NCBI GenBank assembly: GCA_963752765.1
Contig: CAVVZD010000003.1
Location: 220,040 to 284,039 of the forward strand
Source of the DNA: Vulcanimicrobiota bacterium
GTDB lineage: Bacteria > Vulcanimicrobiota > Vulcanimicrobiia > Vulcanimicrobiales > Vulcanimicrobiaceae
DNA: 64,000 nt
Direction of reading: 5' to 3'
Both the position numbers and the translations under genes were made by a program. Positions 33,521 to 41,358 of the stretch are shown piece by piece. The notes below the pieces were generated by a model. That model did no database searches, was not told the DNA's origin, and was given only the letters and a program-made list of their open reading frames with translations. Positions within the stretch are counted from its first letter, which is position 1; the number at the start of each line of letters is the position of its first letter.

Positions 33521-34021
33521 TTATTTTAGAACGGTGATCGGTGCAGCCTGTTTACCTGCGCTCGAGCACGCGCTACACGTAAATGTAATTGTTTGCATGT
33601 AATTGCCCGGCTTGATCGTTTTCGAAGCCTTTATGGTTTCTTTTGTCGGGTTGCCGGGATCGGGCTTAAAGGAACCCTTGAGGCCTTTGTTGTTGGTCTT
33701 CGTCTTCCAGTGAACCGTGCCGCAGGAAACGGGAACGTTTCCTTTCTTGCAGGTGAGCTTAATGGAGAGGGTGCCCTTACCGCCCTGTTTCACGCAAATG
33801 AGCGGAAACTGCGGCTTCTTACAAGCGTTTTTCGCGAAGATGGTGAGCGCATCGTCACCGCGTTCGATTGAAACGGACAAGGGCGTGGAAACGCCGGTCA
33901 TTGCCGACTCCGGAGACTGCTGCAAGACCATCGGCAAAGAACGAAAGCCGCTCGAGCAACCTGTGATGGCAATGGAAGCGGCTGCGGCGAGCGCATAACG
34001 AGAAAACGACCGGAACTGCAT
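33521..34021 (-). CDS. Cys-rich, Lys-rich lipoprotein, paralog A (unknown family)
   Basis: The start is set at MQFRSF...SIAITGC (lipobox). The mature part aligns with the 34804-35292 product, including conserved Cys positions and the identical C-terminus PITVLK. Confidence 0.7.
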   Translation of the reverse strand: MQFRSFSRYALAAAASIAITGCSSGFRSLPMVLQQSPESAMTGVSTPLSVSIERGDDALTIFAKNACKKPQFPLICVKQGGKGTLSIKLTCKKGNVPVSCGTVHWKTKTNNKGLKGSFKPDPGNPTKETIKASKTIKPGNYMQTITFTCSACSSAGKQAAPITVLK

Positions 34022-34047
34022 ACGTACTCCTTTGGGAATTAACGGGT

Positions 34048-34596
34048 CTATGGGCCGACGTTTAGGCCGATGTACTTGACGATGCAACTAGCGGCGCAAG
34101 ATTTGATCTCCTGCCTGTAGAGGTACTTGCTGGTTTCTTGCAGCCCGGAACCCGGCGTGATCGTGTCGAGCTCCCACGTCCCTTTGCACCCAATTTTTTT
34201 CGTGCACTTGTAGGGGCCAGTCCACTTCGCGGTCATTTGCTTGATAGCCCGGCAGGCCTTACCCTTGGCCAAGCAAACGGGGCCGCTCCATTTGACTGTG
34301 CCCGCATTGCTCTTTCCACACGGGTCTGCCTTCGGGCCGTAGCACCAGCCGAGTTCGAGGCCGTTTGCCTTAGAAACCGTGTGGCAGCCGCCGGCAAAGC
34401 GCTTCGGACACGTTGCGTTCGGTTGCGCGCTTGGGTTCGCAACGCGCATGTCCCAGGCACTCTGGTGGCCGACGGAAGCGGACTCGCTGAAGCCGGGCGC
34501 GTTTGGCATCGTTGGTCCGGTTTTCGCAGCGCAAGCCGACAGGACAAGTGCCGACGTCAGCGCCAACGCGAACCACCGGCTAAGACGAAGTATCAT
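34048..34596 (-). CDS. Cys-rich lipoprotein, divergent member B (12 Cys in the mature protein)
   Basis: The start is set at MILRLSRWFALALTSALVLSAC (lipobox). It shares short motifs with A and C (GTVKWSGP vs GTVHWKTK/GKVTWSAT; PGSGLQETSK vs PGNPTKETIK). Confidence 0.6.
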   Translation of the reverse strand: MILRLSRWFALALTSALVLSACAAKTGPTMPNAPGFSESASVGHQSAWDMRVANPSAQPNATCPKRFAGGCHTVSKANGLELGWCYGPKADPCGKSNAGTVKWSGPVCLAKGKACRAIKQMTAKWTGPYKCTKKIGCKGTWELDTITPGSGLQETSKYLYRQEIKSCAASCIVKYIGLNVGP

Positions 34597-34803
34597 GTGA
34601 GAATCTCCTTGTTGAAAGTAGCTATAGCCGTCAACAGTCAAACTGGAGCAACCCAATACACGGCTTGCTTGCCCCGGTTGTCGTCGACTTCGGTCCGGAC
34701 TCCCAAATTACGAACTTAGCTTTTGCAAAGCCTCCGTCCCCGGTTCAATTCGGAGAGCGGAGGTGTACGGCAGCGTCCGAACGGTGCGAATCGCGTCGCG
34801 GCG

Positions 34804-35292
34804 TTACTTCAAGACCGTAATCGGCCACATGCTATGGTCTTTGCACTTCGAAAAGCCGGTGCACGTCCACGAAATCCTCTGGAAGTAATTGCCCGGCTTC
34901 ACTCGTCTCGATGCGGTTACCGTTTCCGTTGACGGATTTCCGGGATTAGGCGAAAACGACGCGCGCAAGCCGCGGCGGCTGATTGTCGCCGACCACGTCA
35001 CCTTGCCGCAATGGATCGTCTTCTTGCCGCGATGGCAGGTCAAGCGCAGACCAAGAGAATTCTCATCGCCCCGTTTGACGCAAAGAAGCGGAAAGGCCGG
35101 GTTCTTGCACTTGCCTTTCGCAAAGACCGTCAGCGCTGCCGCGCCGCTCGTGGCCGGCACAACCGAAGCCGAATAGCTTGGGGCCGCTTGCGGGACCGGC
35201 GGTATGCTGTTGCTCGAGCAGGCCACGAGGAGGCCGGAAACACCTGCAATCGCGAGATACCGCCGAAAGCCAGAAGTAAAAGTAAACCGCAT
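34804..35292 (-). CDS. Cys-rich lipoprotein, paralog C (Arg-rich version of A)
   Basis: Lipobox LLVAC. LTVFAKGKCKNPAFPLLCVKRGD...LRLTCHRGKKTIHCGKVTWS...KPGNYFQRISWTC...PITVLK parallels paralog A. Confidence 0.7.
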   Translation of the reverse strand: MRFTFTSGFRRYLAIAGVSGLLVACSSNSIPPVPQAAPSYSASVVPATSGAAALTVFAKGKCKNPAFPLLCVKRGDENSLGLRLTCHRGKKTIHCGKVTWSATISRRGLRASFSPNPGNPSTETVTASRRVKPGNYFQRISWTCTGFSKCKDHSMWPITVLK

Positions 35293-35298
35293 CGGCAG

Positions 35299-35487
35299 CT
35301 ACGACTCGGGCTGTTGCCTTTCGGCCTCATGGTTCGGCGCTTGCTGCAGCCGCTCCAGCGCTTGTTCGAATTGCGTCCGATCCTCGGGCGTGAGGTCGGT
35401 GCGTTCGAGGGCTCGGCGGATTCCAGCTCCCGTCGCGAGGTTCACCAGATATTCGTTGTCGATCGTGCGTTTTGGACTCAACGGCAT
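35299..35487 (-). CDS. small acidic/charged protein carrying one copy of a ~30-aa helical motif
   Basis: 62 aa. GIRRALERTDLTPEDRTQFEQALERLQQ is nearly identical to the second repeat of the upstream 97-aa protein. Both end in PES. 6 nt upstream of lipoprotein C. Confidence 0.55.
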   Translation of the reverse strand: MPLSPKRTIDNEYLVNLATGAGIRRALERTDLTPEDRTQFEQALERLQQAPNHEAERQQPES

Positions 35488-35499
35488 GCTTGAAGACTC

Positions 35500-35793
35500 C
35501 TACGACTCAGGTGGCTGTTGCAGACGCTGGAGCGCTTGCTCGAATTGGCGGCGGTCTTCGGGGGACAAATCGGTGCGCGCAAGCGCCCGCCGAATGCCGT
35601 CTTCGGTGTCTTCCGCGACGAGCCGATCCTCTCGTTCCTTCACCTGTTCCAGCGTCTGCCCGAGTTGTTGGCGATCCTGCGGCTTGAGGTTCTTCCGGTC
35701 GAGCTCGTTGCGAATGGCGTCCTCCGCTTTTTCCTCGTTCTCGAGATCCGCGGTCCGATCGTCGTCGCTCGGTCCCTTCGAAGATAACGTCAT
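35500..35793 (-). CDS. small charged protein carrying two copies of the same ~30-aa motif
   Basis: 97 aa with AIRNELDRKNLKPQDRQQLGQTLEQV and GIRRALARTDLSPEDRRQFEQALQRLQQ. Its ATG overlaps the trpS TGA (ATGA at 35790-35793). Confidence 0.6.
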   Translation of the reverse strand: MTLSSKGPSDDDRTADLENEEKAEDAIRNELDRKNLKPQDRQQLGQTLEQVKEREDRLVAEDTEDGIRRALARTDLSPEDRRQFEQALQRLQQPPES

Positions 35794-36785
35794 GTCAGCC
35801 TCATTGCGTGTTTCACGTCGGTGAGAACGGCCGCTGCGACCTCACGCGCCCGCGCCGTACCCTCTTCGATGATGCGCTCGATCTGGGATGGATCGTTACG
35901 ATAAGCCGCGTACCGGCGGCGCACGGGTCGAAGATACTCGTTGAGTTGCTCGGCAAAGTCTCCCTTGTCCTGTACGCACCCCAATGCACCCGAGCGGCAG
36001 CCGGCAGCCACTGCGTCCAAGCGCAACGGGTTGACGAACCTCCAGAGCGCGAAGAGCGGACAAATTTCCGGGCGGCCCGGGTCGCCGCGCCGGATCTTCT
36101 GGGGGTCGGTTACCATCGAGCGCACTTTCTGCGCCGTCGTTTCTTCGTCGTCGCTAATGAGGATGGCGTTGTCGTAGGATTTGCTCATCTTGCGCCCGTC
36201 AGTGCCGGGAACGTCCGGAAACTCCGAAAGGATCGCTTGCGGTTCCATCAGGATTTGACGGCCCTCGCCGTAGAGGTGGTTGAAACGGCGTACGACCTCG
36301 CGACCGAACTCGAGATGGGCTTGCTGATCGCGGCCGACCGGAACGAACTCGCCGCGCACGATTGCAACGTCACAGAGTTGCAGCAACGGATACCCCAAAA
36401 AGCCATATGTTGCAATCTCTTGTCCTAGCGCTTCGATTTGGCCCTTGTAACTGGGAACCCGTTCGAGCCACGACAGCGGCGTGATCATCGAGAGGATCAC
36501 CTGCAGTTCGGAAATTTCCGGGACGCCCGACTGTAAGTAGATCGTCGCTTTCGTGGGGTCGACGCCGGCTGCTAACCATACCGCCACCATTTCGTTGCGT
36601 GCATCGCGAATCGTCGCCGGGTCGTCGAACTCGGTGGTGTATGCATGCAAGTCGGCGATCTCGAAATAGGCGTCGGCGGTGTCGCAGTAGTTTGCCCAAA
36701 GCGTCAGCACGCCGACGAGATGACCGAGATGTAAATCGCCGGTCGGGCGCATGCCCGACATGACGCGTGGTCGCGGCGTACTCAA
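35790..36785 (-). CDS. trpS: tryptophan--tRNA ligase
   Basis: Class I HIGH-type motif (PTGDLHLGH) and KMSKS (GRKMSKSYDN). 331 aa. Confidence 0.95.
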   Translation of the reverse strand: MSTPRPRVMSGMRPTGDLHLGHLVGVLTLWANYCDTADAYFEIADLHAYTTEFDDPATIRDARNEMVAVWLAAGVDPTKATIYLQSGVPEISELQVILSMITPLSWLERVPSYKGQIEALGQEIATYGFLGYPLLQLCDVAIVRGEFVPVGRDQQAHLEFGREVVRRFNHLYGEGRQILMEPQAILSEFPDVPGTDGRKMSKSYDNAILISDDEETTAQKVRSMVTDPQKIRRGDPGRPEICPLFALWRFVNPLRLDAVAAGCRSGALGCVQDKGDFAEQLNEYLRPVRRRYAAYRNDPSQIERIIEEGTARAREVAAAVLTDVKHAMRLT

Positions 36786-37513
36786 TGGCGTGCAATCTCC
36801 GCGCGGACATATGCTCGCGCAACGCCAACCGCTTGGCGCAGCGGGGTGCCTACTGCCAGCTCGCAGGCGAGCGCCATCGCCAACGTGCAGCCGGTGCCGT
36901 GCATCTCTCCCGCGATCCGCGGTTCCTCGAAAAGCTCGACGCCTTGCGCGGTTGCAAGCGCATCGACGGGATCGCCGTCGAGATGGCCGCCTTTGAGCAG
37001 CACGGCTTGCGGCCCGCGAAGCTGCAACGCCTGCGCTGCCTGTTCGAGCGCATCGCGGCCGATCGGATGCGTTCCCAACAAGAATGCCGCTTCGTCGAGA
37101 TTCGGCGTGAGCACAACGTTGGGCAGCGTGGCAAGCTCGTCGCGAACCGCGTATCGCGCTGCTTCATCGCCGAGCGGGCCACCGCGGCTTGCTGCAAAGA
37201 CCGGATCGACGACGGTTGGAACCGACGGTCGCGCGCGAACGTACGCCGCCGCGGCGCGTACGTTTGAAAGCGTTGCCAGCGCGCCGATGCGAATGGCGCC
37301 GGCCGACTCCCAGGGAAGCGCCGCGAGTTGTGCTTGCACGACGTCGGTCGGAATCGGATGCAGTGCGACGACGCCGCGCGCATCTTGCGCGCTGACGGCA
37401 GCGACCGCGGTAAAGACGCGCACGCCGCGATCGGTGCCGACCACGAGATCGCGCCCGGTCCCCGCCACGTTCCACGGATGCGTCGTTCCAATCGAGATGA
37501 CGATGGAAATCAT
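36782..37513 (-). CDS. thiD: hydroxymethylpyrimidine/phosphomethylpyrimidine kinase (ThiD-like)
   Basis: VVDPVFAASRGGPL, LTPNLDEAAFL, LLKGGH and HGTGCTLAMALA motifs. 4-nt overlaps with both neighbours. Confidence 0.8.
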   Translation of the reverse strand: MISIVISIGTTHPWNVAGTGRDLVVGTDRGVRVFTAVAAVSAQDARGVVALHPIPTDVVQAQLAALPWESAGAIRIGALATLSNVRAAAAYVRARPSVPTVVDPVFAASRGGPLGDEAARYAVRDELATLPNVVLTPNLDEAAFLLGTHPIGRDALEQAAQALQLRGPQAVLLKGGHLDGDPVDALATAQGVELFEEPRIAGEMHGTGCTLAMALACELAVGTPLRQAVGVARAYVRAEIARH

Positions 37514-38145
37514 CTCCAGGCCGTCACCAGTGCGCGCGCCGCGGCCGCCGGGTCGTCGGCATCGCCGATCGCCGAAATCACCGCGGCCATCGCAACCCCA
37601 CTCTCTCGGACCACGCCGATGTTTTCCGCACGAATCCCGCCGATGGCGGCAACCGGAAGCGGGGTGGCGGACGCGACGCGCTTGAGGCCGTCGATCCCGA
37701 TCGGGGCACCCGCATCGTCTTTTGAGCTCGTTGCAAAGACCGAGCCGACGCCGAGGTAATCTGCACCGGCCGCATCGGCCGCACGGGCCTCGGCCGCGGT
37801 TGCGCAGGAGAGCCCGATCAAGCGATCGCCGATAGCCGCGCGCACGCGCGGCAGGTCGTCGTAGCCGGCATCCTCCGGTCCGAGGTGCACGCCGTCACAG
37901 TCAAATGCCGCCGCCGCTTCGACGTCGTCATTCATCACGAGCAAAGCCTCGTACTCATGCGTAATCCTGCGCAATTCGTTCAGCCTGCCCGCATGCAGAT
38001 TGCGCTTGGCACGGCATTGTACGATGCGGACGCCAGCCTCCAGCGCAGCGCGCGCGAGCGATAACGCCGTCGGTGCGTCGTTGACGATGAGGTAAATCCC
38101 GTGCAGACGAATTGCGCGGGCGGCACGCGTTAACGACGCTGCCAA
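37510..38145 (-). CDS. thiE: thiamine-phosphate synthase
   Basis: LHGIYLIVND...VRIVQCRAK...GADYLGVGSVFATSSK...AIGGI. The start is assigned to in-frame TTG 38145, because the longer ORF-track N-terminus is R/C-rich and runs into parB. Confidence 0.8.
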   Translation of the reverse strand: MAASLTRAARAIRLHGIYLIVNDAPTALSLARAALEAGVRIVQCRAKRNLHAGRLNELRRITHEYEALLVMNDDVEAAAAFDCDGVHLGPEDAGYDDLPRVRAAIGDRLIGLSCATAAEARAADAAGADYLGVGSVFATSSKDDAGAPIGIDGLKRVASATPLPVAAIGGIRAENIGVVRESGVAMAAVISAIGDADDPAAAARALVTAWR

Positions 38146-38299
38146 ATCAGCACGTTGGCGGCAACGTAGCACGCGTACACAACAGCGACGCCCCCAGCGA
38201 TCCAGGCGTGGTGGTGTGCGACCGCCAGCGGTACCAGCAAGCCGAAGCAAACGACGCCCGCCATGAGCACAGTTGCGGCACGGGTGAGCGACAGCGCGC

Positions 38300-39172
38300 T
38301 CACGTTCTCTCCTCTTCACCCAGCAACAAGTCGCCGAGCCTCATCAGCTCCTCGTCGTTGTTGAAGCGGAACTCGATCCGTCCGCCCCGGCCGCCGCGCA
38401 CGAGTGCGACGTGGGTACCGAAACGCTGGCGCAACCGGGATTCGAAGTCGTGTTCGTCGGCTGAAAGCATGCGCAGTTTCGGCGCGGTTTTTTCAGCTTG
38501 AACCGTCGTGACCGCGCCCGCCAGGCGCTCCAGCACGCGAACGGTCAACCCCTCGTTGACGGCGCGCTGCGCTAGCCGCAAGCGATCGTGCTCGCGTGCC
38601 GCGAGCAAGGCCTTTCCGTGTCCCGCGGAGAGGCGGCCATCGACGAGCATTGCTTTCACCGCGTCCGGCAAGCCTAACAGGCGCAACGTGTTCGCAACCG
38701 TCGGCCGGCTTTTCGCAAGACGCGCCGAGAGCTCATCTTGCGTAAATCCAAACTCGTCGATGAGATGTTGAAAACCGGCCGCTTCTTCGATCGGATTGAG
38801 GTTTTCGCGCTGTAAGTTTTCGATGATCGCCACTTCGAGCGTTTCGCGATCGTCGCTGCCGCGCACGATTGCCGGAATCGTGTGCTTGCGCAGCAGCGCG
38901 CACGCGCGCCAGCGCCGCTCGCCGGCGATGAGCTCGTACCCCTCGCCGCGGCGACGGACGATAATCGGCACGAGCACGCCGTACGCGGCGATCGAGTTCT
39001 TCAGTTCCTCAAGCGTTGCGGCATCGAAGCGCTTGCGCGGCTGAAACGGATTTGGCGTAATGCGATCGATCGGAATCTCGTACAGCGTCTCTTGGGCGGC
39101 CGACGTTGGCACAGCCGTGTCGCCGAGGAGCGCGCCGAGGCCGCGGCCCAACCCGCGTTTGGGTGCGCTCAT
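38300..39172 (-). CDS. parB: chromosome partitioning protein ParB/Spo0J
   Basis: ParB-box GERRWRA, NPFQPR, and an HTH region. 4-nt overlap with parA. Confidence 0.93.
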   Translation of the reverse strand: MSAPKRGLGRGLGALLGDTAVPTSAAQETLYEIPIDRITPNPFQPRKRFDAATLEELKNSIAAYGVLVPIIVRRRGEGYELIAGERRWRACALLRKHTIPAIVRGSDDRETLEVAIIENLQRENLNPIEEAAGFQHLIDEFGFTQDELSARLAKSRPTVANTLRLLGLPDAVKAMLVDGRLSAGHGKALLAAREHDRLRLAQRAVNEGLTVRVLERLAGAVTTVQAEKTAPKLRMLSADEHDFESRLRQRFGTHVALVRGGRGGRIEFRFNNDEELMRLGDLLLGEEERT

Positions 39173-39942
39173 ACGCGAACCTCTTCGCGCTCGAGCATCT
39201 CGCGGGCCAGGGCAAGATAGGCTTGCGCGCCGCGGCTCTTTGGATCGAAGAGGATGACCGGTTTGCCGAACGAGGGCGCTTCGGAGAGCCGCACGTTGCG
39301 CGGAATTTGCGTCTTGAACATCTGCTCGCGAAAAAACTTTTCGAGTTCGCCGAGAACGTCCATCGCGAGGCGCGTTCGTCCGTCGAACATCGTCACGAGC
39401 ACGCCGGTGACGCGCAGCGGCGGATTGAGCGCTTCGCGAATGCGCTGCACGACCGCGGTCAGCTGTGAGAGGCCTTCGAGCGCGTAGTACTCAGCTTGCA
39501 CCGGAATGATGCACTCGTCGGCGGCGCTGAGCGCATTAATCGTCAACAGCCCCAACGACGGCGGGCAGTCGATAAAGATAAAATCGTACTGGCTTCTCAC
39601 CGGCGCCAGCGCGCGGCGCAACCGCGTTTCCCGCGAGAGCGCGGAGACGAGCTCGATCTCCGCACCGGCGAGATTGATTGTCGCCGGAACAAGCGCTAGG
39701 CCGTCCACGCCGGTCGGAACGACGGTTTCTTCGATTGGCGTTTGGCCGAGCAACACGTCGTAGACGTCGCGATCGAGCTCGGCTTTGGCGATGCCAAAAC
39801 CCGTCGTCGCATTGCCTTGCGGGTCGGCATCGACGACAAGCACGCGTCTGCCCGAAATCGCAAGGGCTGCGCCAAGATTGACGGCGGTCGTGCTCTTACC
39901 GACGCCGCCTTTTTGATTGACGAGTGCGATCGTACGCGCCAG
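39169..39942 (-). CDS. parA: chromosome partitioning ATPase ParA/Soj (start assigned to CTG 39942)
   Basis: The deviant Walker A, TIALVNQKGGVGKSTTAVNLG, is encoded upstream of the first canonical start (GTG 39843). No ATG/GTG/TTG lies between the in-frame TGA (39964-39966) and 39843. GGGAGA (39949-39954) sits 6 nt before the CTG. Confidence 0.85.
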   Translation of the reverse strand: MARTIALVNQKGGVGKSTTAVNLGAALAISGRRVLVVDADPQGNATTGFGIAKAELDRDVYDVLLGQTPIEETVVPTGVDGLALVPATINLAGAEIELVSALSRETRLRRALAPVRSQYDFIFIDCPPSLGLLTINALSAADECIIPVQAEYYALEGLSQLTAVVQRIREALNPPLRVTGVLVTMFDGRTRLAMDVLGELEKFFREQMFKTQIPRNVRLSEAPSFGKPVILFDPKSRGAQAYLALAREMLEREEVRV

Positions 39943-39963
39943 GACTATTCTCCCAAATCGAAT

Positions 39964-41358
39964 TCACGCACTCGCGTCACGCGTTTGCGCGTCGAGATAC
40001 CGGCTGAGAAGTCGGAGAAGCGAAGTGCGCTCGTTACGCTCGGGTTGGTCCGTAACCTGCTCGAATAACCAGCGCAACGCAGCGCCAACGCGTTCGTCGC
40101 CGCGAAATCCGGACGGGGCTTCACCCCGGCGTACGAGTTCCGTGATGACGTCCTCGCCGTTCACGCAGAGGTCGGCAAGCGAGAACGGCGGCTTGCGAGC
40201 AATCTCTTCGCGTACGCGTTGCGCAAAACGCTCGTTTTTGTCCCCGCGACGGGGCAAGCCTGACCCAACAACGTCCGCTTCGCGTAAAGCGAACAAGTGT
40301 TCGATATTATTTAAGCCAATCCTCCGCACGAAACGACGGACCGTGGCGTCTTTCATCTTCGGATCGGAAACGAACATATGCTGGCGCACCAAGTGCGTGG
40401 TCGCCTCGACAACCTCGTTCGGAAAACGAAAGCGCTCGAGCATACCCTGCGTCATTTCGGCGCCTACAATCTCGTGGCGGTAGAAGTGGCCGCCTGCCTT
40501 TGTCCGTGGCTTGCCGACGTCGTGGAACAAGGCAGCCAAGCGATCGACGAGGGTCGGCGGAGCAGCGTCGAGCGTGTGGAGGCTATGCTGCCAAACATCG
40601 TAGGCATGCCACTCGTTCTGGTCAACGCCGACGCCTTCGAGTAGCTCCGGCCAGAGGTAGGGCAGGACGCCGGTTTGGTGGAGGAGCTCCAGCCCAATTG
40701 ACGGCCGGCGCGCTTTAAGAAAGAGCTTCGAAAGCTCCTCGTAGACCCGCTCGGCGGCCACCGTGGGCAAGAGTGGAGATGCGGCTTGCATCGCCGACCG
40801 CGTGTCATCGGAAAGCGAGTACTCGAACCGCGCGGCGAACTGCGCGGCCCGCAACATTCGTAACGGGTCTTCCTCGAATGCCAGCGGCGTCAGGATGTCG
40901 ATTCGGCGGGCCTCGATGTCGGCCACCCCGCCGTGCGGGTCGACAAGGTTGCCGGAGGGCAGCGCGCGGGCGAGCATATTCATCCGGAAATCGCGCCGGG
41001 CCAAGTCCTCGTCAAGCGGGATCCCGGGGCCGCTTTGCACCTCGAAGTCCCGATGGCCGACTCCCACGGAGCGCTCTCGCCGGGGCAGTGCGACGTCCAC
41101 CGTCGTGGCTTCGATGGTCAGCTTTAGGACGGCGAAAGCAGCGCCGACGATGTCGACGTGGCCCAGCGGTCGAAGTCGCTCCTGCAGATTCTCGATCGGG
41201 ACGCCGGTGACGACGTAGTCGAAGTCCTTATTCTGAAAGCCGATCCCTTCGACGACCGAGCGCACCTCGTCGCGGACCCGGCCACCCACGGCAAAAAGCG
41301 AACCAGCCGGCAACGCGGAAGCCAGCTTTTCGTCGAGAGCCAATCGACGGTACACCAC
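39964..41358 (-). CDS. cca: CCA-adding enzyme / poly(A) polymerase-family tRNA nucleotidyltransferase with HD domain
   Basis: GGRVRDE head motif, FDYVV (DxD region), and HD domain (LFHDVGKP). GTG start. Confidence 0.85.
   Translation of the reverse strand: MVYRRLALDEKLASALPAGSLFAVGGRVRDEVRSVVEGIGFQNKDFDYVVTGVPIENLQERLRPLGHVDIVGAAFAVLKLTIEATTVDVALPRRERSVGVGHRDFEVQSGPGIPLDEDLARRDFRMNMLARALPSGNLVDPHGGVADIEARRIDILTPLAFEEDPLRMLRAAQFAARFEYSLSDDTRSAMQAASPLLPTVAAERVYEELSKLFLKARRPSIGLELLHQTGVLPYLWPELLEGVGVDQNEWHAYDVWQHSLHTLDAAPPTLVDRLAALFHDVGKPRTKAGGHFYRHEIVGAEMTQGMLERFRFPNEVVEATTHLVRQHMFVSDPKMKDATVRRFVRRIGLNNIEHLFALREADVVGSGLPRRGDKNERFAQRVREEIARKPPFSLADLCVNGEDVITELVRRGEAPSGFRGDERVGAALRWLFEQVTDQPERNERTSLLRLLSRYLDAQTRDASA

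Follow-up and report, generated by a model that had tools for sequence, protein, structure and literature searches.

Small helical-hairpin proteins encoded downstream of trpS in a Baltobacteraceae lineage: an apparently undescribed family with proposed recurrent unit doubling

Two short open reading frames (ORFs) lie directly downstream of trpS, the gene for tryptophanyl-tRNA synthetase (TrpRS), in a 64,000-nt stretch of genomic DNA from a Vulcanimicrobiota bacterium (contig CAVVZD010000003.1; "the window" denotes this whole stretch). Both encode a repeated motif reminiscent of the Spy/CpxP chaperones, and both are packed between the synthetase gene and a group of lipoprotein genes. The locus therefore raises the question of whether the two ORFs are genuine genes and, if so, whether their products are relatives of these chaperones, accessories of TrpRS, partners of the lipoproteins or members of a family of their own.

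Gene organization downstream of trpS

All genes of interest were located on the minus strand. The trpS gene (35790–36785; 331 aa; PF00579 match, E 6.6e-60) was followed by an ORF of 97 aa with two repeat units (35500–35793), an ORF of 62 aa with one unit (35299–35487), and three genes for Cys-rich lipoproteins, beyond which lay a convergent aminotransferase gene. The predicted small proteins were acidic (pI 4.6 and 5.0, respectively), and the 97-aa ORF had eleven orthologues of 96–102 aa. The adjacent lipoprotein gene, termed C (34804–35292; 162 aa, lipobox LVAC), preceded the ORFs of its paralogues B (34048–34656) and A (33521–34087), which together occupied 33521–34656.

A preliminary description of this DNA had regarded the small genes as translationally coupled to trpS, and the junctions agreed with that reading. 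The ATG of the 97-aa gene (35793–35791) shared the tetranucleotide ATGA with the TGA of trpS (35792–35790), and a GAGG Shine-Dalgarno (SD) sequence (35799–35802, minus strand), embedded in the trpS codons ...AMRLT, was present 5 nt 5' of this ATG; the pattern, aatGAGGctgacATG, was identical in the window and in the relatives L011, L009 and L012. The SD sequence of the 62-aa gene, AGGAG (35497–35501, minus strand), overlapped the TAG stop of the 97-aa gene and read tAGGAGtcttcaagcATG in the window and tAGGAGccttccgggATG in L011. The spacings measured 12 nt between the two small genes (35488–35499) and 6 nt between the 62-aa gene and lipoprotein gene C (35293–35298), both as originally described. 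The same was true of the shared C-terminal PES, seen in both translations, and of the absence of a signal peptide: the N-termini, MTLSSKGPSDDDR and MPLSPKRTIDNE, exhibited no hydrophobic stretch, and the GRAVY values of the 97-aa and 62-aa proteins were -1.5 and -1.1, respectively.

Stop/start overlaps were also found further upstream. At 36782–36785, thiD and trpS overlapped by 4 nt, as trpS and the 97-aa gene do, and a similar overlap joined thiE and thiD in a relative; the region 35299–39966 thus appeared as one long translationally coupled gene string downstream of parAB.

Coding signals and selection on the small genes

The closest relative, L011, a 3-kb metagenome contig, exhibited the same gene order: trpS, genes of 97 and 63 aa, and three lipoprotein genes. 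Analysis of substitutions revealed an omega of 0.22 for the 97-aa gene in comparison with L011 and 0.21 in comparison with L012, and an omega of 0.17 for the 62-aa gene in comparison with its 63-aa orthologue in L011. Apart from the pair with L011, three pairs gave 0.17–0.21; the corresponding value for trpS was 0.06. Reading frame and amino-acid sequence were maintained although synonymous sites were saturated, and the GC content at the three codon positions (0.74/0.38/0.72) was like that of trpS. On this substitution and composition pattern, the 97-aa and 62-aa ORFs are genuine genes under purifying selection. The preliminary description had made its case depend on conservation of the frames in relatives, and the frames proved to be conserved, with omega of 0.17–0.22 at saturated synonymous divergence.

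Long open frames are common in high-GC genomes, and a 206-aa shadow ORF indeed ran along the opposite strand, so that the two ORFs might be regarded as spurious, non-coding frames. However, omega was close to 0.2 in four independent pairs, with the protein kept at saturated synonymous divergence, the codon-position GC was that of an established gene, the SD sequences were present and kept in relatives, and 68 clusters of homologues were recovered. The substitution pattern effectively refutes a spurious origin, to which we assign a negligible probability.

Repeat unit and its duplications

Three copies of a unit of ~30 aa, [DE]GIRRxLxRxDL[ST]PEDRxQFEQALxRL, were identified, two in the 97-aa protein (DAIRNELDRKNLKPQDRQQLGQTLEQV, DGIRRALARTDLSPEDRRQFEQALQRL) and one in the 62-aa protein (AGIRRALERTDLTPEDRTQFEQALERL). 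In the 97-aa protein, repeat 1 (aa 23–53; 35635–35727, minus strand; AEDAIRNELDRKNLKPQDRQQLGQTLEQVKE), recognized by register and identities, was a degenerate copy that varied among orthologues, whereas repeat 2 (aa 63–93; 35515–35607, minus strand; TEDGIRRALARTDLSPEDRRQFEQALQRLQQ) formed a conserved core that was almost invariant in 12 orthologues. The unit of the 62-aa protein (aa 19–49; 35341–35433, minus strand; TGAGIRRALERTDLTPEDRTQFEQALERLQQ), placed by comparison in codon register, had 25 of 31 amino acids in common with repeat 2. BLASTP aligned repeat 2 and the 62-aa unit at 70% identity over 40 aa (E 9e-17); the 62-aa protein also aligned with the N-terminal part and repeat 1 of the 97-aa protein, at 34% over 53 aa (E 1e-6). 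The likeness of the repeats is therefore far beyond chance, and the three copies originally described, two in the longer protein and one in the shorter, were confirmed.

At the DNA level, the likeness was much weaker. In codon register, repeat 2 and the 62-aa unit were identical at 64 of 93 nt (69%) but at just 10 of 31 third positions, and a DNA repeat search found nothing longer than 12-nt seeds between the copies. The reported homology between 35299–35420 and 35500–35620 thus holds only in part, being plain in the proteins but weak in the DNA. The duplication must accordingly be old, with selection at the protein level keeping the copies alike.

The 62-aa protein shared the N-terminal M-x-L-S-x-K with the 97-aa protein and its gene shared the last 12 nt with the 97-aa gene, while its hairpin was nearest to repeat 2; the 62-aa gene would thus fit a duplicate of the whole gene from which one unit was lost by recombination between repeats. 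From the forms recovered, we infer at least three independent doublings of the unit, namely inside the gene (the 100-aa form), as the tandem 97-aa and 62-aa genes of the window and L011, and as a tandem of 64-aa and 57-aa genes. The last pair, with a TAATG overlap, was present at L064 2491–2858, L065 3807–4174 and L066 1488–1855; it followed an AlkZ-like gene, faced an aldose epimerase gene in convergent orientation and was far from any trpS.

Distribution and architecture of the family

When 5.8 billion proteins were searched with a profile, the 68 clusters were recovered, all labelled hypothetical, and those with a named source came from Candidatus Eremiobacteraeota or Baltobacteraceae metagenome-assembled genomes. 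From 1.84 billion representatives, an exhaustive HMM search retrieved 42. In genome scans, 11 of 201 species genomes from Baltobacteraceae (6 of 78 genera) and 10 of 301 from the phylum as a whole were positive; the strong matches of the latter scan all lay within Baltobacteraceae, with none in other families of the phylum. The window proteins matched the family profile at E 1e-15 to 8e-33, and both fitted the family core [DE]GI[RK][RK]xLxRxDL[ST]PEDRxx[FYL]ExALxxL and the size range of 45–105 aa.

Two architectures were observed. Single-hairpin proteins were ~65 aa long and often began with MFFRKR; double forms were ~100 aa long and began with MTPFPERP, with an almost invariant repeat 2 and a degenerate repeat 1. 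Conservation was strongest at the turn of the unit. Searches of Pfam, NCBIfam and PHROGs returned only sub-threshold and inconsistent helical matches (HBS1_N, Arg_decarbox_C, UCR_14kD, zf-HC2), which we judged to be compositional, and a search of PDB sequences with two family profiles returned nothing relevant. As far as sequence comparison can define it, this is an undescribed small-protein family limited to a few lineages of Baltobacteraceae (Eremiobacterota).

Predicted structure and small helical look-alikes

AlphaFold2 (AF2) models were built with the family alignments and were of moderate confidence. The 62-aa protein was predicted as a hairpin of helices 8–27 and 34–49 (core pLDDT 82–87, mean 72.9), and the 97-aa protein as three helices, 10–32, 38–73 and 78–92 (mean pLDDT 73.5, pTM 0.44). 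The pTM of the models was 0.44–0.45, and the L-x-P motifs were located at turns. Foldseek comparison of both models with the PDB gave nothing at E ≤ 0.001. SrfA (PDB 7xnj) was present in both match lists and topped that of the 62-aa model, at E 0.7–5, which is not significant; a match to 3d36_B concerned the kinase chain of the KinB-Sda entry rather than Sda.

The predicted fold nevertheless invites comparison with the histidine-kinase inhibitor Sda and with SrfA, which are likewise cytoplasmic antiparallel two-helix hairpins of 45–70 aa. The small proteins differ from them in having neither sequence similarity nor a common genomic context, and Sda itself was unmatched. By analogy, we expect that they work like hairpin regulators of this type. 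A similar L-S-P-E-E-R helix start is found in the N-terminal helix of zf-HC2 and FecR-type anti-sigma proteins, and sub-threshold Pfam matches to zf-HC2 (4 of 27 members) and DUF4880 (3 of 27) fell far under the curated cut-offs; the small proteins, however, lack both a Cys/His zinc site and a transmembrane segment.

Two readings of the conserved turn itself were discarded. An EF-hand-like calcium loop at D-L-T-P-E-D-R has the wrong spacing and no Gly, and a proline-directed phosphosite at T-P is contradicted by the replacement of Thr with Ser, Asp or Leu in homologues.

Comparison with LTXXQ proteins

The L-[ST]-P-E-D-R-x-Q core had been taken in the preliminary description as a hint of the LTXXQ family (PF07813: Spy, CpxP, ZraP), with DUF3106-type families named beside it. 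A likeness to LTXXQ proteins is apparent: both are all-helical, a hydrophobic residue followed by Ser/Thr-Pro-Glu-x-Arg/Lys-x-Gln-Phe/Leu begins a helix at a turn, and the two-repeat form contains two motifs ~40 residues apart. The small proteins differ in being much smaller, in having a single hairpin as the basic unit and in lacking a signal peptide. No Pfam match to LTXXQ, Metal_resist or DUF3106 was obtained at E up to 10 for the window proteins or 39 members (27 + 12), and a six-frame scan of the genome with PF07813 (curated cut-off 24.3 bits) matched C1:200629 and C6:6842 but nothing at the locus (C3:255.3–255.8 kb). Neither suggested family was thus borne out.

The first of these matches (G000:C1:200629–200715; L030) belonged to a true lipoprotein of the LTXXQ type, whose open frame of 254 aa carries the lipobox LSAC and a tandem of two LNL[TS]xQQR...VLTPQQR domains. 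A second contig has an identical copy (G000:C6:6842–6928; L033), which may be a real duplication or an assembly duplicate. True LTXXQ proteins of this lineage carry signal or lipobox sequences.

More sensitive comparisons revealed a limited resemblance. Neither Spy nor CpxP was reached at E up to 10 when PDB sequences were searched with the family profiles (hmmsearch), whereas a 6-sequence LTXXQ profile of the lineage, as positive control, found Spy at 1e-7 and CpxP at 4e-4; Spy and CpxP were also absent from the 50 Foldseek matches listed for the two models. The literal L-T-x-x-Q pair did not occur, the corresponding positions being L-K-P-Q-D and L-S-P-E-D in the 97-aa protein and L-T-P-E-D in the 62-aa protein, with Asp at position 5; across the family the conserved unit reads E-D-R where LTXXQ has Gln. 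Alignment of the double-repeat family with 6 Baltobacteraceae LTXXQ domains by hhalign was colinear over 60 columns (probability 40%, score 25.6, compared with a mean of 9.9 and a maximum of 22 in 200 column shuffles and with 14.8 for reversed controls). Against a 38-sequence, phylum-wide LTXXQ profile, only 17 columns were aligned, around vLTPeQRxxF, with a probability of 27% for the two-repeat and 21% for the single-repeat family.

Position next to trpS

Where the small gene was located 3' of trpS, the two overlapped by 1 nt (TGATG) or 4 nt (ATGA), or abutted (L007). The window's genus contributed four further species with such adjacency, which was also seen in genus g7, the double-repeat clade and the P0056 lineage, and all cases were situated in a conserved string, parA-parB-thiE-thiD-trpS. 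In G005, G139, G120, G124 and the L064–66 lineage, the gene was located elsewhere, among unrelated neighbours. Since adjacency is limited to certain clades and TrpRS is present in relatives without the gene, the trpS link is best read as positional; it probably stems from the gene's place in the operon and not from a part in tRNA charging. The analysis gave no support to a functional connection with TrpRS or with the lipoproteins.

Several observations at this junction stand apart from that question. In genus g7 (L019, 994–1710), the small-protein frame could be read back through 239 open codons across the 3' half of trpS, and one public gene call (P0087) joins trpS and the small protein out of frame; this open stretch was not conserved in other lineages. 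A -1 programmed frameshift that would fuse TrpRS and the small protein was rejected, as the upstream open stretch shrinks to 16 codons in the window and to none in L007. Further along the string, the window contained a 57-aa ORF at 38130–38303 (minus strand), and the P0056-carrying relative had a 61-aa gene in the same parB/thiE slot, which suggests that this micro-ORF is conserved.

Neighbouring lipoprotein genes

A lipoprotein homologue was located 3' of every double-repeat gene examined (window, L009, L010, L011, L012 and L013), whereas no such neighbour was present at the single-repeat loci examined, either next to trpS (L002, L003, L005, L006, L007 and L019) or elsewhere. The check on co-occurrence with Cys-rich lipoproteins proposed earlier therefore gave a split result, positive for all double-repeat loci examined and for no single-repeat locus examined. 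The proposed co-translation with lipoprotein C was likewise tenable only in part: it is plausible in the window and its closest relative, but in other double-repeat relatives (L009, L012) a 76-nt gap and a separate SD sequence preceded the lipoprotein gene.

Inspection of the lipoprotein genes indicated that the probable starts are ATG 34596 (MILRLS...) for B and ATG 34021 (MQFRSF...) for A, and not the upstream TTGs; GGAGA is present upstream of ATG 34596 in the window, and the L011 orthologues are called at matching starts with GAGGAG and AGGAG. A weak terminator-like hairpin over the start of lipoprotein gene C (35300–35285, minus strand; 6 pairs and a T-rich tail) was dismissed, since such sites were no commoner than in shuffled sequence (6 found, 8 expected).

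Alternative relationships and functions

A first alternative would derive the family very remotely from the LTXXQ fold, as a cytoplasmic offshoot without the original signal peptide that serves as a small ATP-independent cytosolic chaperone or stress adaptor; several resemblances speak for it. In the structure of CpxP, the LTXXQ motifs are located at turns, as both family motifs are predicted to be; L-[ST]-P-E-x-R-x-Q-F corresponds to the second LTXXQ motif, and the colinear hhalign score exceeded the shuffle maximum. This colinearity, however, probably arose by later internal duplication rather than from a two-motif LTXXQ ancestor, since the single-hairpin form is widespread and is probably ancestral. 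The defining Gln is an Asp in the conserved unit, the alignment with the larger LTXXQ profile shrank to 17 columns, and Pfam, PF07813 and PDB searches gave no link to the family, although the PF07813 scan and the control LTXXQ profile recovered true LTXXQ proteins. In addition, a cultured member of Baltobacteraceae is diderm, with an outer membrane (PMC9758169), so that a periplasmic protein would need a signal peptide, which the small proteins do not have. On these sequence comparisons we conclude that the resemblance to Spy/CpxP is a real but generic helix-capping motif without family membership, as the same motif recurs in unrelated proteins that the profile recovered, such as a NACHT-like repeat protein, and in sub-threshold anti-sigma matches. 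A very remote relationship to LTXXQ is improbable, and the cytosolic offshoot equally so.

The second alternative treats the hairpin as an accessory subunit of TrpRS. WHEP is a helix-turn-helix domain appended to eukaryotic TrpRS, and this analogy serves as a lead only: the WHEP-TRS domain of eukaryotic TrpRS and other synthetases is likewise a helix-turn-helix of ~50 aa tied to a tryptophanyl-tRNA synthetase gene, and a helical hairpin supplied in trans might similarly bind the synthetase or its tRNA, with its ratio to TrpRS fixed by coupling. The stop/start overlap and the SD sequence inside trpS are kept in genera g1 and g7, the double-repeat clade and the P0056 lineage, and adjacency was maintained despite saturated synonymous sites. 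However, all genes of parA-parB-thiE-thiD-trpS overlap, so that overlap is a local rule, and about 190 of the 201 family genomes contain TrpRS without the gene. At least five lineages (G005, G139, G120, G124 and L064–66) have the gene elsewhere. In contrast to WHEP-TRS, the small proteins are encoded by a separate gene and are missing in most relatives with the same TrpRS; Pfam scans gave no WHEP-TRS match, and no genuine fusion was found among the 42 representatives or in the genome scans. None occurred among the 1.84 billion representatives searched, the P0087 case being an out-of-frame call. By analogy with WHEP, such a subunit can be imagined, but we consider it unlikely. The lipoproteins offer yet another partner, in an envelope-related role such as a cytoplasmic escort or a regulator of their production. 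That a lipoprotein homologue follows every double-repeat gene examined, at a gap of just 6 nt in the window, would fit such a role, but the co-occurrence is limited to one clade and confounded by descent, and the lipoprotein genes of L009 and L012 have their own SD sequence behind the 76-nt gap. We regard this role as slightly less probable still than the two preceding ones.

A proposed hairpin family with recurrent doubling

The explanation that we favour, and consider fairly probable, is that the small proteins form an undescribed Baltobacteraceae hairpin family, coupled to trpS in this lineage, whose hairpins pair to bind a partner. Each unit would fold as an amphipathic helix (GIRRxLxR), a tight turn (DL[ST]PEDR) and a second amphipathic helix (xQFEQALxRL) in antiparallel orientation, with the Ser/Thr/Asp of the turn capping the second helix. 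Acidic and without signal peptide, the proteins would be cytoplasmic, and in the window's lineage they would be synthesized by translational coupling to trpS. The ancestor may have been a gene of ~65 aa encoding one hairpin, in which internal duplication gave rise to the two-hairpin gene of ~100 aa; in the sub-lineage of the window, a tandem copy would then have lost one hairpin to become the 62-aa gene.

Recurrent doubling suggests that the working form has at least two hairpins. Together with a single narrow hydrophobic stripe per helix and the conserved charged turn, it points to a helical bundle in which hairpins would pair, whether inside one chain, in a homo-oligomer or across the 97-aa and 62-aa proteins, presenting the invariant charged tip (R-x-D-L-T-P-E-D-R...E) to a putative partner, as a small binding or regulatory module. 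Bundle and tip-to-partner contact are a hypothesis; the conserved charged residues could instead be purely structural, forming salt bridges at the turn. It is improbable that the unit is a minimal cytoplasmic relative or analogue of the client-binding helix pair of Spy/CpxP, or a WHEP-like module of TrpRS, with its copy number tuned by duplication.

The family adds a group of small proteins under selection to a phylum with only a single cultured species; Pfam, NCBIfam and the PDB have neither a name nor a model for it. Its repeated independent doubling, within the gene and in tandem, provides an example of small helical proteins changing their stoichiometry and hints at a multi-hairpin bundle as the working form. 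The narrow distribution limits its wider impact unless the partner is found. For annotation, the recurrence of L-[ST]-P-E-x-R helix caps in unrelated helical proteins, among them LTXXQ proteins, anti-sigma domains and HEAT-like repeats, warns against taking them for family signatures. One further protein, P0090 (1146 aa), is NACHT-like and contains ~17 tandem 37-aa repeats, QLLRRTDLTPEQTAEVAQALY, which have only the helix-cap motif in common with the family.
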